DNA of 64,000 nucleotides from Thermodesulfobacteriota bacterium (GTDB taxonomy: Bacteria; Desulfobacterota_D; UBA1144; Nemesobacterales; JAJCZQ01). Below the pieces are notes generated by a model. It saw nothing but the letters and a program-made list of their open reading frames with translations, ran no database searches and was not told where the DNA came from. A program made the translations under genes and the position numbers. The first letter of the stretch is position 1. Each line of letters starts with the position of its first letter. The stretch covers positions 1,824,001 to 1,888,000 of the forward strand of contig OZ244044.1 in NCBI GenBank assembly GCA_965215275.1, given 5' to 3'. Positions 10,228 through 63,111 of the stretch are shown in pieces.

Positions 10228-10242
10228 GATGTAAGTAAATTA

Positions 10243-10398
10243 GGGAATTATAAAGGAAAGTTGACAAGTTTACCTTAACTGTTCCGAGTGCAGAGTTCCT
10301 CTATCCCCGATCTCTTTTGATCTGATACTCTTAGCACTCATCGGGAGTATTTCTACCTTATTCCCACCCGATATGAAGTCTCCTTCATCAAGAGTATT
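10243..10398 (-). ncRNA. Putative omegaRNA scaffold overlapping the tnpB 3' end and the terminal repeat
   Basis: Starts just after the RuvC-III codons; stems ATACTCTTG/TAAGAGTAT, ATGAAG-GAGA-CTTCAT, GAGTGC/GCACTC, AGAG-GAA-CTCT; covaries with the copy at 62818-62978. Confidence 0.7.
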
Positions 10399-11492
10399 GA
10401 TATTTTTACCTGCATTTATGTCCCTGTCTTCTGAATAACCGCAATACATACAGTTAAAAGTCCTGACTGACAGAGGCTGTTTGGGATTTACCTTTCCGCA
10501 TTCAGAACAGGTCCTTGTTGTATAATGAGCTTTAACCAAAACCAGCTTGCCTCCAGCTATCCCGGCTTTGTAAGCAAACTGACGTTTGATCTTGCCCCAT
10601 TGCTGTTCCGTTATGGATTTAGCAAGATGATGGTTCTTTACCATTCCTTGTATATTCAAATCCTCTAATTTTATATGATTACTCTTCTTTACGGTCTCTG
10701 TTGTTAATCTGTGTATAGCATTATTTTCACGATCGGTAGTTCGTTCCCATTCCTTCGCTAACGATAAAACTTTCTTCTTTCTGCTGTCAGAACCTTTTAC
10801 CGCTCTTGAAACAATTCTTTGCTTTCTTTTCAGTTCCTTCCTGTCTATCCTGATACCGGGAATTTTAGTTCCATCTGAAAAAGCTAATCTGTTTGTTATT
10901 CCAAGATCTATTCCTATGGATTTATCCAAAGGTCTCTTCTTCTCATTTGTAAACTCACACAGAAACTGTATCTTTATTCTTAACGAACTCCTGATTATTC
11001 TTATTACAGTTTTAGGTTGCTTTAAAACAACTCCGTCAGGCATACTACCTTTGAAAGATAACCTCCCAGTCCCTTTATCGTTAAATAAGTCCTTCTGCCG
11101 ATCTTTTCAATGTTTTTATAATTGTTTGTTTCAAAACTTCTGACGGGTCTGTTCGGACCTTTATATTTTGGTCTGCCTACCTTTTTTGCTTTCCTGCCAG
11201 CTTTTTTATTCCTTAAATAATTCAGATAGGGACCGTAAGCATTATCCAGCCTTTCCAGAACGCTTCTTTGAGCTACCACGTTAAACTTTTCAAATTCCCT
11301 GTCCTGCTCCCGGACCTCGGTCAGTTCGTTAAACTGCTCGTATTTGGATACGGTTTTTTCATACCAGTCATAAGACCTTAATCTGTGATACAGGGCACCG
11401 TTGTAAAGATCGGTAAGCTGTTGCAGAAATTCATCCAGCCTTTTATGAAATCCACTATCTGCCTTTACAGTTCTTGTAATCGTTCTAACCAT
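10270..11492 (-). pseudogene. tnpB: RNA-guided endonuclease TnpB, split by a 1-nt frameshift near 11064-11067 (about 407 aa if joined)
   Basis: N-half LYNGAL, GRPKYK; C-half GIDLG (RuvC-I), LEDL (RuvC-II), CSECG/CMYCG zinc finger, DRDINA (RuvC-III). Confidence 0.9.
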
Positions 11493-11498
11493 ATAATA

Positions 11499-11527
11499 AC
11501 ATTACCTTTTTCTATTCTGTTTGTCAA
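11499..11527 (-). promoter_or_regulatory. Sigma70-like promoter for a leaderless tnpB transcript
   Basis: Minus strand TTGACA-17nt-TAATGT, then 6 nt to the ATG; no Shine-Dalgarno. Confidence 0.6.
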
Positions 11528-11583
11528 TTTTTTCTTGTTAACTTATTTTTGTCAACTTTTCTTTATAATTCCCGTAAATTACA

Positions 11584-19763: not shown

Positions 19764-20487
19764 TTACTTTCGTGCTAAAAAGATCCGTTCTCCCATCATT
19801 GCTCCAAATTTTATGATCTCTTTATCCGAAAGGAATGTCTCTGGTGTAACAGTTTCCACGTGAAATCCAGCATCGCGTATTCTGTCTATGTAATCTTTTC
19901 CGCATAATCGGACATGAAGACATTCACCAAAGGTTTTGAGGCGTTCTTCAGGGTCAGTTATTGATGGGTCCTCAAATGTTTTTTGAGTTAAGATCGGGAC
20001 TAGTATTACAGCCATGCCGTCATCCTTTAATACTCTGTACAGTTCACTTATAGCTTTTTTATCATCCTGAATATGTTCCAGTACATGACTGCAGATGATC
20101 AGATCGAAAGACCGGTCTGGATATCTGATGTTCGTTATATCCATTTCTACCATCACGTCCCGGTCACTTAGACCAGCGGATAAGTATCCTTTACCAAAAT
20201 ATTCCTTTAACTTTTGTGCAAGGCACACGGCTGGTGCGATATCAAGCACTTTGATAGATGGAATGGGGGGGGGGATATGTCTTTAAAAGGAAAAGGTATA
20301 TCAAGCGATGTCTTTCATAGGAACCGCATGTCGGGCATTTAGCATTTTTACGACTGTTAATGCGATTATTAATGGGAAGAAACTCTCTGGACGATCTTTT
20401 GCATACTGGGCAATACATTTCTTTTCCACAATGATAATATATTGCTTTTAGAACACTAATGAAATATGTACGAATAAGGTGAAGCAT
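19764..20487 (-). pseudogene. Class I SAM-dependent methyltransferase with N-terminal Zn ribbon, frameshifted in a C10 tract (possibly phase-off)
   Basis: ORFs 20242-20487 (CPVC, CPTC) and 19764-20249 (DLIICSHVLEHI) join if G10 at 20265-20274 is G9; intact paralog at 61805-62515. Confidence 0.85.
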
Positions 20488-20878
20488 AGCCGTTCATTCA
20501 AAGTGATAATACATGGTGAAAAGGTAACTAAAATACCGATTTAATACAGATAATGGACCATCTGATCAATGATGAGAAAAAAGGATACTATAGCTCAGTT
20601 CTGAATTTTTGCAATCAGGTCATTGCTGATAACGCCGTATGCTACCTCTTCCACAGGTTTTTATAGACCAGTCTTCTTTTAAAGGTATAGATCTGGTCTA
20701 GCATTTCCAGATTACGCCAAAGCTGAATACCTTACGAAGCTGGAAGAGTGCCAGAAGTCCAGTAAATACAATGGTAAGGACCGTAGTTCCAATGTCGTTG
20801 TTGTATTTTGGATTTAATTCAAGGAAAATTTGGAAAAGGGACTGCCAGATCTTATGATGGAAAGTCTCACTTGATATG

Positions 20879-21025
20879 TTACTTTCGTGCTAAAAAGATC
20901 CGTGTTCCCTTAAATATTCCAAATTTTATGATTTTTTATCCGAAAGGAATATATCTGGTATAATAGTTTCTATGTGAAATCTAGCATCGCATATCCTGTC
21001 TATATAATTTTCCCCGCATATCCGA
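20879..21025 (-). pseudogene. 3' fragment of a third methyltransferase copy
   Basis: Reverse complement ends KFGIFKGTRIFLARK*, like the other two copies. Confidence 0.75.
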
Positions 21026-57658: not shown

Positions 57659-58987
57659 ATGAGTGACTACCCTCCCGGATTAGATTCCGCAATCAATCAT
57701 AATTTTTTTGATGCAGTATTTCAGAGAAGGTCCCGAAGGTTCGGGCTCGGCATGGAGATAGAAAAAGGGCCCCTTAAATATAGATCGAAGCACGAACCTT
57801 TTCCTCTCAGTGAACTTGAAGAGGCAATAATCGTCTGGACAGGATTAGGAATTAAGAATATAAACCTCTCTGATTTTCCTCCTCATGTAGGACTTGATCT
57901 CGAGATGCAGTTTACAAGTAAAACTATTCCTGCACTTGGAGATGTTCACAGAACTGAACTTTTTTATACCAACGACAACGGCCTGTACATGGTCAAAATG
58001 CACGACAAACTTGCTCATGAATTTGAAGGCTTAGAGAAAATGACAAGGTCCCGGAGAATTGACAAAATACTTGAACTATTTAAAGAATCACGAATAAAAC
58101 TCCAGGATGGAAGAGCTGATCTGCCAACTCAGCCACCGGGAATTGCGGCACACAACCTCTGGAACGTCAATAAGCCTGGTACCACGCTTTTCATGCCAGT
58201 AACGGACCTTTCTGCTTGTATTATTAATTTGTACTTTTTCTATATGAGAGCTGACCACAGATTTAACTTTGTGGACGAACTTCATGGATTAAGACATCCG
58301 GGAACTTCCGAATGGATAAAAAGAGGCTTAATTGACGAAGGTAAAAGAATGCCGCTCGTTGAAGCGGAACTGCGATTTGCCAATGGATATATAGCCGAGC
58401 AGGCATTTATGGGACAGAACATGGTGCTTACCCTGCAAACACTTGGACTTGGAGGATGGCTGTTCAGTGGATTTGCCAGCATGTTCATGCTTGGAGGAAC
58501 TCCGTTCAATAAAGGACTTGGATTCAGATTTATAACCCCTGATATAAAAGGAAACACAGGAAATCCAAATCCAGTGGCAGTTGGCAGAGACGACCTGTTC
58601 CATTCATTCTGCCCACCTTACTACAAGGACATGAATGAAGCCGTTGAAGCTTTCAATGATCTAAAGTGGACTAACTGGGAATCGCATCCAATGCCTTATA
58701 AAAATCCCGAAGCAGTTATAAAGGATATTGAAAGACCTTCCAGGGAAGAAATACAGATCGTTAAGGACATCTGCAGCTATATCTACGACACTTATGGCAG
58801 ATTTCCAGCTTTCTCTGACCCTATGTTTCTACGGTTCATGGTTCAGGCACATCATCTTGATCTCGATTTTTACGATAAATTTTATCCTCCCGGAGCATAC
58901 ACCGAAACGCACAAAGATCATTTCAAACTCTGGCACCCTGAAGTTAAAGACCCCTTTTCGGGTGATAATATAGAACAAAGCAACTAA
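57659..58987 (+). CDS. Hypothetical protein, possibly nitroreductase-like fold
   Basis: QRRSRRF near the N-terminus and QNMVLTLQTLGLGGW resemble nitroreductase motifs. Confidence 0.6.
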   Translation: MSDYPPGLDSAINHNFFDAVFQRRSRRFGLGMEIEKGPLKYRSKHEPFPLSELEEAIIVWTGLGIKNINLSDFPPHVGLDLEMQFTSKTIPALGDVHRTELFYTNDNGLYMVKMHDKLAHEFEGLEKMTRSRRIDKILELFKESRIKLQDGRADLPTQPPGIAAHNLWNVNKPGTTLFMPVTDLSACIINLYFFYMRADHRFNFVDELHGLRHPGTSEWIKRGLIDEGKRMPLVEAELRFANGYIAEQAFMGQNMVLTLQTLGLGGWLFSGFASMFMLGGTPFNKGLGFRFITPDIKGNTGNPNPVAVGRDDLFHSFCPPYYKDMNEAVEAFNDLKWTNWESHPMPYKNPEAVIKDIERPSREEIQIVKDICSYIYDTYGRFPAFSDPMFLRFMVQAHHLDLDFYDKFYPPGAYTETHKDHFKLWHPEVKDPFSGDNIEQSN

Positions 58988-59799
58988 AGCCCTTGTTCAT
59001 AATCCTTTACTATCCTGCTCACCGTCGAGTAGTGTAGTGAAAAATGATCAGCCAGCTGTTTAAGTGTGTAATCACCACTCAGATATGCTCTTGCAATTGC
59101 GATCTCTTTTGAATCCGATGAACTTACATATTGCTGAATTAAAGCAGACCTCTGTACCTTTGGTATTTCCGTTATATTTTTTTCCTTATCTATATACCTC
59201 TGCACATCATTTATAAACTTCTCATCTCCCAGGAAAACCTGTTTTGTTACCTGATTCAAAATATCTTCCTTTGAACCCACTTTGTCTGAAAATTCTGCTC
59301 TCACGTCATTAAAAAGTCCATTCACATAATTTTTATCAAACCAGTCTGGACATTCTTCTTTATCAAACATGTACTTACAACTGCTCCATTTAAACTGATG
59401 AGGCAACCTTACAAATCCTGATCCCACAGGACAAAATAAAATATATTTAATTAAATCTGCAAGGTACTTATCTTTCTGGATCAGAACTGATTCATACCGG
59501 CCTCGAAAAACGTGTCCATCCCTTCCATGCCTTCTGTTAAAGTTCTGTGTATAAATACCGTTTAACTGTCTCATCCCCTTGGACAGAGTGGGCTTTGGCG
59601 TTTCAATAACTACCATGTACTTATAGCTCATAAGACAATAGGAATAGCAAATCCAGCCAAATCTGCTGCAAACATTCTTAAAAACTTCTAACCATGCTTT
59701 AGCGTCTTCCGACCCCAGGAATATTTCCTGCGAAGCATTACCCTTTGAAGTAATAAAATAAACAGCACCGGGAAACTCTATTCTTAATGGACGTGCCAT
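58984..59799 (-). CDS. RAYT-like Y1 tyrosine transposase homolog with C-terminal HTH; HUH motif degenerate
   Basis: MARPLRIEFPGAVY, YTQNFNRRH, GHVFRGRY, WSS; YCLMSYKYM in place of YCLMxNHxH. Confidence 0.85.
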   Translation of the reverse strand: MARPLRIEFPGAVYFITSKGNASQEIFLGSEDAKAWLEVFKNVCSRFGWICYSYCLMSYKYMVVIETPKPTLSKGMRQLNGIYTQNFNRRHGRDGHVFRGRYESVLIQKDKYLADLIKYILFCPVGSGFVRLPHQFKWSSCKYMFDKEECPDWFDKNYVNGLFNDVRAEFSDKVGSKEDILNQVTKQVFLGDEKFINDVQRYIDKEKNITEIPKVQRSALIQQYVSSSDSKEIAIARAYLSGDYTLKQLADHFSLHYSTVSRIVKDYEQGL

Positions 59800-61207: not shown

Positions 61208-61804
61208 CAGATGATTATATGAAAACTGGTTTATAGGAAAAGAAAACTCATCCGCAGAATGTAGCTATATACCAGTTCTTTTCAACAAACTAATAATTAA
61301 TATAAAAAACCAAGCTATAAACTTTCTAGGCTTGCCATTAATAAGGATATATAGATCTTTTCCATTGAAAACATACACTATTTGACGTCATTCTTCCAGC
61401 AATGACCGATAGGCATGTTACTTGAAAAATTAGTTTTTTTTCAACGCCTTTAAAGGAATCACATCACCATGTTTTTATGTGAGACATTACTTCCGTTCAT
61501 CGTTTGGCATTGGAGTCACAATTGCTGTTATTCGTATCTTGGCCTTCAACATCATTCGTTCGTCAAGTTCAAGACTAGGCAAAAACTGCTTCGACCTTCA
61601 TGAAAATGTATTGAAGTTCAGATAAAAAAGACCTGTGGAAGAGGTAGCATAAGGCGTTATCGGCAATGACTTGCTTGCAAAAATTCAGAAATGAGCTATA
61701 ATATTTTTTTCTCATCATTAAACGATTCATATAAAATACTATCTATATTAAACTGATATTTTAGTTATGTTTTTACCATTTATTATCACTTTGAATGAAT
61801 AACT

Positions 61805-62515
61805 ATGCTTCACCTTATTCGTACGTGTTTCAGTATTGTTCTAAAAGCAATATATTATTGTGTAAAAGGAATGTATTGCCCAGTATGCGAAAGATCATCC
61901 AGAGAGTTTATTCCTATTAATAATAGAAAAAATGTTAAATGCCCAATATGCGGTTCCCGTGAAAGGCATCGCTTTTTATATTTTTTCCTTTTAAACATAT
62001 ATCTTACCCCCCCCCTTCCATCCGTAAAAGTGCTTCATATTGCCCCAGAGGTGTGCCTTGCACAAAAGTTAAAGGAAAAGTTTGGTAAAGGGTACTTGTC
62101 CGCTGGTCTAAGTGACCGAGACGTGATGGTAGAAATGGATATAACTAACATCAAATATCCAGACCGGTCTTTTGACCTGATCATTTGCAGTCATGTACTG
62201 GAACATATTCAGGATGATAAAAAAGCTATAAGCGAACTATACAGAGTACTAAAGGATAACAGCATGGCTATAATACTATTTCCGATCTCAACTCAAAAAA
62301 CATTTGAGGACCCATCAATAACCGACCCTGAAGAACGCTTCACAACCTTTGGTCAACATAATTATGTTCGGATATGCGGAAAAGATTATATAGACAGAAT
62401 ACGCGATGCTGGATTTCACGTGGAAACTGTTACACAAGATATACTTTTTTCGGATACGGAGATTATAAAATTTGGAATACCTAAGGGAACACGGATTTTT
62501 TTAGCACAAAAATAA
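61805..62515 (+). CDS. Class I SAM-dependent methyltransferase with N-terminal Zn ribbon (in frame through a C9 tract)
   Basis: CPVC/CPIC, VLHIAPE, DLIICSHVLEHI; C9 at 62007-62015. Confidence 0.9.
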   Translation: MLHLIRTCFSIVLKAIYYCVKGMYCPVCERSSREFIPINNRKNVKCPICGSRERHRFLYFFLLNIYLTPPLPSVKVLHIAPEVCLAQKLKEKFGKGYLSAGLSDRDVMVEMDITNIKYPDRSFDLIICSHVLEHIQDDKKAISELYRVLKDNSMAIILFPISTQKTFEDPSITDPEERFTTFGQHNYVRICGKDYIDRIRDAGFHVETVTQDILFSDTEIIKFGIPKGTRIFLAQK

Positions 62516-62778
62516 CATGCCAAGTGAGACTTTTCACCATAAGATCTGGCAGTCTCTTTTCCAAATTTTCTTTGAATTAAATCCAAAATACAACAACGAC
62601 ATTGGGACTACGACCCTTACCCTTGTATTTACTAGACTTCTGGCACTCCTCCAGTTTCGTAAGGTCTTCGGTTTCGGCGTAGTCTGGAAATGCTAAATCA
62701 GATTTATAACTTTAAGAGAAGACTGGTCTATAGAAATGAAAGGATCTGTGGAAGAGGTAGCATATTTAATTAATCAGT

Positions 62779-62807
62779 TTGGCAAGTAAATAGCAATTAG
62801 TTATATT
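62779..62807 (+). promoter_or_regulatory. Sigma70-like promoter directly upstream of the orphan omegaRNA-like scaffold
   Basis: TTGGCA-17nt-TATATT; scaffold homology starts 11 nt later. Confidence 0.5.
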
Positions 62808-62813
62808 AAAACT

Positions 62814-62978
62814 AATGAATATTCTTATATAAAGGAAACTTTATATGGGGTGGGACAGCTAAAATGGGGAATAACGCTCCCGATGGTTGCTAATAATATT
62901 TAAAACAGAAGGGAATTGAGGGACTCTGTACTCATAACGATATAGGTAGATTTTTGTCAACTCTCCCATATAATTCCC
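62814..62978 (+). ncRNA. Stand-alone omegaRNA-like scaffold ending in the tnpB-element terminal repeat
   Basis: Collinear homology to the reverse complement of 10243-10398; compensatory stem changes; TIR at 62954-62978 matches 21/25; no tnpB ORF upstream. Confidence 0.68.
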
Positions 62979-63086
62979 TTTCTATGGAAGAGGTAATGGA
63001 TGCTATATTTGTTAAACAAAAGGCTATTATCAAGGCAAGAAAACTTAAAAATAAATTAAAAGTTAATGATAACAAGTAGTTAGAGC

Positions 63087-63111
63087 TTTTGGGTAATTAA
63101 ATATAGTCCCC
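63087..63111 (-). mobile_element. Possible orphan IS1595-like end of a different subtype
   Basis: Reverse complement GGGGACTATATTTAATTACCC; similarity to the 24.8-kb GT upstream region begins immediately beyond it. Confidence 0.4.

Follow-up and report, generated by a model that had tools for sequence, protein, structure and literature searches.

The segment at 62765-62978 of the analyzed window, a stretch of 64,000 nucleotides, is probably the immobilized and decaying remnant of a non-autonomous transposable element whose coding part was deleted. On homology and covariation, the part at 62814-62978 is a real gene-less copy of a TnpB omegaRNA scaffold (hereafter the orphan), with helices P1-P5 and a terminal hairpin at 62818-62978 on the forward strand and a 25-bp right terminal inverted repeat (TIR) of IS1595 type at 62954-62978. 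It is 72% identical to the scaffold copy at 10243-10402 of the window and 71-74% identical to the group A scaffold copies, and a BLAST comparison with the 3′ end and right TIR of the tnpB in the window gave 71% identity over 178 columns (E 1.6e-18), which bears out the homology and the TIR end at 62978 proposed in the original prediction. Every letter quoted there was found in the sequence, namely the promoter-like TTGGCA (62779-62784) and TATATT (62802-62807) separated by 17 nt, the P1 strands AATATTCTTA (62818-62827) and TAATAATATT (62891-62900), in which C-G has become T-A at one pair and a single position is a C.T mismatch, and ATAAAG-GAAA-CTTTAT at 62829-62844 with its G-C to A-T swap. 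The statement that homology begins at the first stem holds roughly, but not to the nucleotide, the BLAST alignment running from 62807, slightly upstream. As predicted, tblastn searches with TnpB (four query proteins) detected no coding remnant in the 400 nt before the orphan. An Rfam search of the window returned two tRNAs only, the scaffold matching no family. The right TIR agrees at 21/25 positions with the left ends of tnpB elements, at 23/25 with the ends of passenger cassettes and at 17/25 with those of autonomous IS1595 elements, while no left TIR motif occurs within 350 nt of the orphan.

Since minimum free energy folding of single copies gave inconsistent structures (z -1.2 for the tnpB copy in the window), the scaffold structure was taken from covariation. 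Among tnpB-borne copies, covariation is seen in P1, P2, P3, the pseudoknot P4, P5 and the terminal hairpin; P4, for instance, reads GAGTGC/GCACTC in group A and GCAAGC/GCTTGC in lineages B and C, and the 5′ strand of the terminal hairpin tracks each TIR variant. In an alignment of 15 rows, 21 of the 41 pairs have two-sided changes and 91% of cells are paired, compared with 37-49% in slid controls; the structure was derived from the same 15 rows, so these values favor it over the slid controls. The same layout was recognized by eye in 19 elements of related genomes. The proposal that covariation supports the scaffold structure is thus upheld across the family. In the orphan the helices fall at 62818-62827/62891-62900 (P1), 62829-62844 (P2), 62845-62850/62879-62884 (P3, with a G.G mismatch), 62885-62890/62928-62933 (pseudoknot P4, with one mismatch and two G-U pairs) and 62917-62927 (P5). 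GGGA at 62852-62855 and TCCC at 62975-62978 are complementary, but nearly invariant across the family; a fifth pair at this position, C.T in the orphan, shows covariation solely in three copies of group C. By analogy with ISDra2, these strands may form a terminal pseudoknot next to the guide.

The elements from which such scaffolds derive encode TnpB and no transposase, and are bounded by inverted repeats of 22-25 bp starting GGGAATTATA and by AT-rich 8-bp duplications. The same outer ends flank elements encoding an IS1595 transposase (NF033547, E 3e-47; PF12762). IS1595 elements with DNA methyltransferase-HNH passenger genes lie at 675417-678070 and 1812584-1815955 of contig C1 of the genome. 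TnpB of the family belongs to NF040570 and is homologous to solved TnpB chains. Six full-length group A proteins carry the RuvC D-E-D motifs. The window itself holds one such non-autonomous element on the reverse strand at 10243-11573 (10235-11581 with its duplications), with the duplication TAATTTAC preceded by TG; its tnpB is frameshifted by a one-base deletion, leaving parts of 156 and 257 aa. This 2-Mb genome contains at least 14 TnpB genes of full length. TnpB homologues were found in 35/101 genomes of the order, including 30/36 in one genus, and those examined share the ends. A DNA search of 30 relatives returned TIR matches only, neither a TnpB query in a genome contig collection nor a degenerate scaffold pattern in genome and metagenome contig collections gave a match (the source genome being possibly excluded from these), and tblastn of plasmids with TnpB yielded just 27-30% matches among the 15 listed.

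A one-sided motif distinguishes these tnpB elements from other elements with the same ends. The nucleotide directly 5′ of the left duplication is G in 31/31 IS1595-ended tnpB elements, comprising all eight group A elements of the genome itself and all 23 relative loci with a recognizable duplication, out of 30 examined (L062-L101), of which two share a site and the kin are not independent. The preceding dinucleotide is TG in 20 and AG in 3 of the 31. On the opposite side G occurs in 9/31, and in 11 control elements with IS1595 ends and no tnpB it occurs on 0/22 sides. Since the G is invariant at the left duplication of tnpB elements and lacking in the controls, we infer that the TAM of the family is NG, mostly TG, that the guide starts with the duplication, and that insertions are retained in a TnpB-dependent manner. 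Group D TnpB elements have TA in 3/3 cases, and a more distant clade has GG, GA or AG. A guide inside the element was considered and rejected, because the variable segment in question forms pairs with the TIR and the motif sits directly at the left duplication.

Applied to the orphan, this rule would put its guide at 62979-62998, comprising the surviving target duplication TTTCTATG and flank, the position following from the G motif at -1. The 3′ flank (62979-63111) comes from a different IS1595 element, being the right end into which the parent inserted. Homology to five related, uninterrupted copies in the genome begins at or within 3 nt of 62979. On the other side the orphan block is joined to a duplicated block (62500-62764, forward strand) consisting of a methyltransferase 3′ end, a spacer and a DapF-like 3′ fragment, the latter named from motifs of its ORF. 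This block is 87% identical to genome positions 1844894-1844638 and 88% identical to 557977-558027, and breaks off at 62763/62764, where loose ends are also seen in other sequencing runs. Larger duplicated blocks with a DapF-like 3′ fragment and a methyltransferase lie at 61626-62764 and 19764-20894 of the window, in a glycosyltransferase-rich region.

Between the duplicated block and the scaffold lies a promoter-bearing module (62765-62814), which probably stems from the inside of an IS1595-type left end whose outer left TIR is missing. Its boxes match the consensus at 10/12 positions. The claim that the orphan has a promoter of its own does not stand on the motif alone, since three such motifs were found in the region and 3.0 expected, but the placement before the scaffold is better than chance: for any given intergenic point, a 10/12 promoter so placed is expected with p 0.005-0.009, and promoters of score 10 lie 10-11 nt before P1 in 2/16 orphans of the genome (P 0.003-0.008). 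The second of these (L054, 494610-494818 of contig C1) retains the left TIR and has a decayed right end; its extended -10 box TGGTATAAT resembles tnpB promoters of a related genus, and its scaffold starts 11 nt later. Among 25 left ends and upstream regions compared with the module in the window, two align significantly (0/300 shuffles each); both adjoin S8-peptidase genes, and in one of them a left TIR of IS1595 type lies some 60 nt upstream. A derivation from a present tnpB left end is unsupported, just these S8-gene segments aligning out of the 25. An ATG lies 7 nt after the -10 box of the orphan, compared with 5-12 nt after the -10-like box in tnpB left ends, and opens the reading frame M-N-I-L-I-stop (62815-62832), a likely deletion junction in which 62815-62829 (ATG-AAT-ATT-CTT-ATA) joins a start codon to the N-I-L codons of TnpB. 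The promoter has the look of a left-end module that a deletion brought up to the scaffold, and a deletion between the start codon and look-alike I-N-I-L codons would give a tidy boundary without selection.

The pairing state of the orphan points to decay. The original prediction overlooked the pair-breaking changes at 62847 (G.G in P3), at 62887 and 62929 (P4), at 62917 (P5) and in the terminal hairpin. Compared with group A, the orphan differs at 10 paired columns and shows two compensatory swaps, two new G-U pairs and 4/33 broken core pairs (terminal hairpin excluded), so that its core helices are not intact in the way those of active copies are, whereas the tnpB-borne lineages B and C differ from group A at 19 and 21 paired columns with 0/33 broken. 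The C-G pair of P3 that is G.G in the orphan is kept in 17/17 tnpB-borne copies. Statistically, breakage among the stem changes alone is not below the neutral expectation (P 0.16); counting against decay, when all differences of the orphan from group A are treated as neutral, 4 pairs are broken where 8.9 would be expected (P 0.008), and the two swaps have P 0.024. The fold, too, is better than that of shuffled sequences (z -2.3), and 36 of the 41 modelled pairs form in the orphan as aligned. Covariation as a sign of function of the orphan itself is not supported: a decayed tnpB relic of the same genome has five compensatory swaps alongside seven breaks. Since this relic carries swaps and lineages B and C no breaks, the swaps of the orphan were presumably inherited from a tnpB-bearing ancestor, and are best read as a record of that ancestor under selection and not of present function. 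Its RNA may still be transcribed, but with these pair-breaking changes accumulated it probably no longer guides cleavage. The terminal branch leading to the orphan is 0.21, compared with under 0.05 for most group A copies. The allele of the orphan across 62847 recurs in short contigs from three studies (runs X1, X5 and X6). In run X1, where related scaffold ends with other flanks are also found, related contigs have the pairing letters C62847, G62887 and C62929. Against decay, one X1 contig, about 12% diverged, shares the promoter-scaffold junction and has intact P3 and P4 letters; to go by equal depth, it has apparently gained another compensatory swap, along with a newly broken pair.

The favored history of the remnant can be put as follows. 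The IS1595 transposase would move the parent elements in trans, the RNA of the parent family would run to the end of the TIR with a guide beginning with the duplication, and cleavage of vacated NG sites by TnpB would favor retention. The ancestor of the orphan would have inserted at an AG|TTTCTATG site in the right end of another IS1595 element; a deletion would then have brought the promoter-bearing left-end module, with its start codon, up against the N-I-L codons with which the scaffold starts, and a later rearrangement would have removed the left TIR together with the left half of the host element. That the locus might be the leftover of a deleted full element had been named in the original prediction as the scenario opposing its own reading, and this scenario fits: the left end is missing, and relatives carry imprecise deletion derivatives. 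Two of these (L103 and L105) are deletion units with both ends, leftover tnpB codons and imprecise junctions.

Against this history stands the reading closest to the original prediction, that the orphan is a functional stand-alone omegaRNA with its own promoter, loaded in trans by an intact TnpB and cutting or blocking the right ends of other IS1595 elements. The scaffold homology, the structure and the promoter placement behind that prediction have stood; covariation is not supported as a sign of function, and core pairs are broken. In addition to promoter placement, pairing at 36/41 positions and an intact TIR end, the six D-E-D group A proteins would supply an effector, and the guide has a 17/17 match in the genome, at another IS1595 end behind AG, which is the sole such match among 24 guides and follows a G. 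There are two perfect 12-nt seed sites behind AG for the orphan guide (17 and 14 nt match), compared with 1/18 other guides with a seed site behind a G. For ISDra2 TnpB, Nakagawa et al. (2023; PMC10097598) describe a seed of 12 nt and cleavage at a distance of 15-21 nt from the TAM. Given a seed rule of this kind and the AG-flanked matches, an active orphan RNA would likely cut the host chromosome. Yet the matched site is the multi-copy site of the element's own insertion, and the targets persist beside the orphan; a contig with the uninterrupted target is present at about the depth of the orphan in runs X2-X4, which are possibly the source samples. AG is the rarest accepted context in the family (3/31), and the self-targets may be poor substrates; because AG is possibly a weak TAM, the persisting targets lower the probability of function without removing it. 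The invariant P3 pair and a P4 pair are broken, and at 72-74% identity to the nearest TnpB-borne scaffolds, compatibility with their proteins is unproven. Taken together, present function of this kind is unlikely. A fuller version, in which a promoter-driven, protein-free omegaRNA uses the duplication as guide seed, was fixed in the host against other IS1595 right ends and possibly also lies behind the break upstream, is less likely still. The break enters through a 14/17 near-match to the guide at 62743-62759, preceded by AAAG, which has the left junction of the block at its position 21-22, the TnpB cut distance. The chance of this is about 8e-4, noticed post hoc, and cleavage there is made doubtful by mismatches in the seed (positions 1, 2 and 6).

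The orphan is not a second copy, as had been claimed, but one of many. The genome scan for further orphans that had been suggested was run with a covariance model built from 15 copies, orphan included. With 150 of about 900 candidates scored, the model recovered 35 hits from the 1.99-Mb genome at a threshold of E 0.001; iterated nhmmer, with a threshold of E 1, recovered 48. Seventeen of the 35 directly follow tnpB (one truncated), two follow decayed tnpB fragments and 16 have no tnpB, among them the orphan of the window. In related genomes, a second model gave 58 hits, ten of them not beside a listed tnpB match; a scaffold match in one relative (G001) was rejected as an orphan, since it follows a tnpB 3′ end at a contig edge. 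Eight of the 16 orphans lie within 700 nt of members of a family of large S8-peptidase/Ig-repeat genes. Dozens of S8 peptidase, P-domain and Ig-repeat genes occur genome-wide (e.g., at L119), several of them bounded by IS1595-type ends or followed by scaffold relics, and the set looks like a gene family expansion driven by transposons. The genome also contains a tandem array of a 40-bp AT-rich unit in at least eight copies (391531-391861 of contig C1).

These copies bear on a further reading, doubtful and lower in our estimate than either version of a functional RNA, that the orphan was formerly a mobile omegaRNA-carrying MITE, an IS1595 equivalent of the PATEs described below, whose structure was maintained by TnpB in trans and which lost its function with the deletion of the left end. 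Left-TIR motifs are found 32-65 nt upstream in 5/16 orphans. A relative harbors a gene-less unit of 257 bp (L107; G048 contig C1, about 1922216-1922472) with both TIRs, a 7/8 duplication behind TG, an intact-looking scaffold and no tnpB remnant, and in the genome itself the copy at 1484802 has 1/33 pairs broken. The latter is the best-kept gene-less scaffold, lying in a 221-bp unit (contig C1, 1484743-1484963) with a left TIR and a 6/8 duplication; as a candidate stand-alone RNA with a function, it surpasses the orphan of the window. The scaffold ends with other flanks in run X1 also agree with mobility. Yet the genome holds no near-identical multi-copy version of the orphan sequence, and in-place deletion explains single copies with duplications equally well; as for the features of a mobile IS1595-type MITE, the orphan has a related TIR, but lacks two TIRs with an 8-bp duplication. 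That the orphan is a transcribed decoy, kept by the host to bind TnpB without productive targeting and so to damp its activity, is very improbable, since the breaks sit in core helices, no orphan match was found in G001-G003 (G001 being 80% complete) and no conservation was detected beyond very close strains, even if the promoter, the largely preserved fold and the many full-length TnpB genes could favor damping.

As summarized by Altae-Tran et al. (2023; PMC10691335), stand-alone omegaRNAs of OMEGA systems were evidently mobilized and have demonstrated activity in trans; there, as here, an effector-less scaffold resides in an effector-encoding genome, and the orphan too would have to act in trans, but its left end is gone, some of its core pairs are broken and its ends are TIRs of IS1595 type. 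PATE-like protein-free IS200/IS605 elements encode an omegaRNA (Meers et al., bioRxiv 10.1101/2023.03.14.532601), and the orphan likewise derives from a tnpB element, of which it retains the RNA-encoding right end without the gene. The PATE-like elements have Y1-type hairpin ends and no duplication, whereas here inverted repeats are combined with an 8-bp duplication that forms the predicted first 8 nt of the guide; classification of the orphan as an IS200/IS605 PATE therefore fails, its parents having TIRs of 22-25 bp and 8-bp duplications. Elsewhere in the window, a 271-aa ORF on the reverse strand (58984-59799) with weak Y1_Tnp and HTH Pfam matches is a candidate REP-associated or IS200-like tyrosine transposase. 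In ISDra2 the RNA overlaps the tnpB 3′ end, as in the family described here, and the last scaffold bases before the guide form a pseudoknot (Nakagawa et al., 2023; PMC10097598) like the one that GGGA and TCCC may form in the orphan; sequence and helix layout are different, and the terminal hairpin is built here from the TIR of a DDE transposon.

Closer to the parent family are the DDE-associated TnpB branches DDE-1 to DDE-6, which have inverted-repeat ends and include solo tnpB elements mobilized in trans (Altae-Tran et al., 2023; PMC10691335). In DDE-5, according to the same source, a TA motif lies 8 bp before the transposon end as predicted. Group D resembles DDE-5 in this respect, whereas the motif of group A is G, mostly TG; DDE-5 may or may not be IS1595. 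The DDE transposon partners of TnpB named in the relevant passages of these sources are IS630 (PMC10691335) and ISL2, IS630 and IS1031 (PMC13565253, section 6.2), with IS1595 not among them. A literature search that covered few subscription papers found no description of a TnpB with IS1595 ends.

In itself, the orphan is probably common transposon debris of a familiar sort; if it worked, it would be an RNA guide with the ends of other transposons as its targets. Its family matters more, since it places TnpB within the cut-and-paste ends of IS1595. Whether TnpB selects or retains insertions of DDE transposons is treated as open in a 2026 review (PMC13565253), and the one-sided G/TG motif is genomic evidence that it does. 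The same motif predicts a compact nuclease with a very short TAM.
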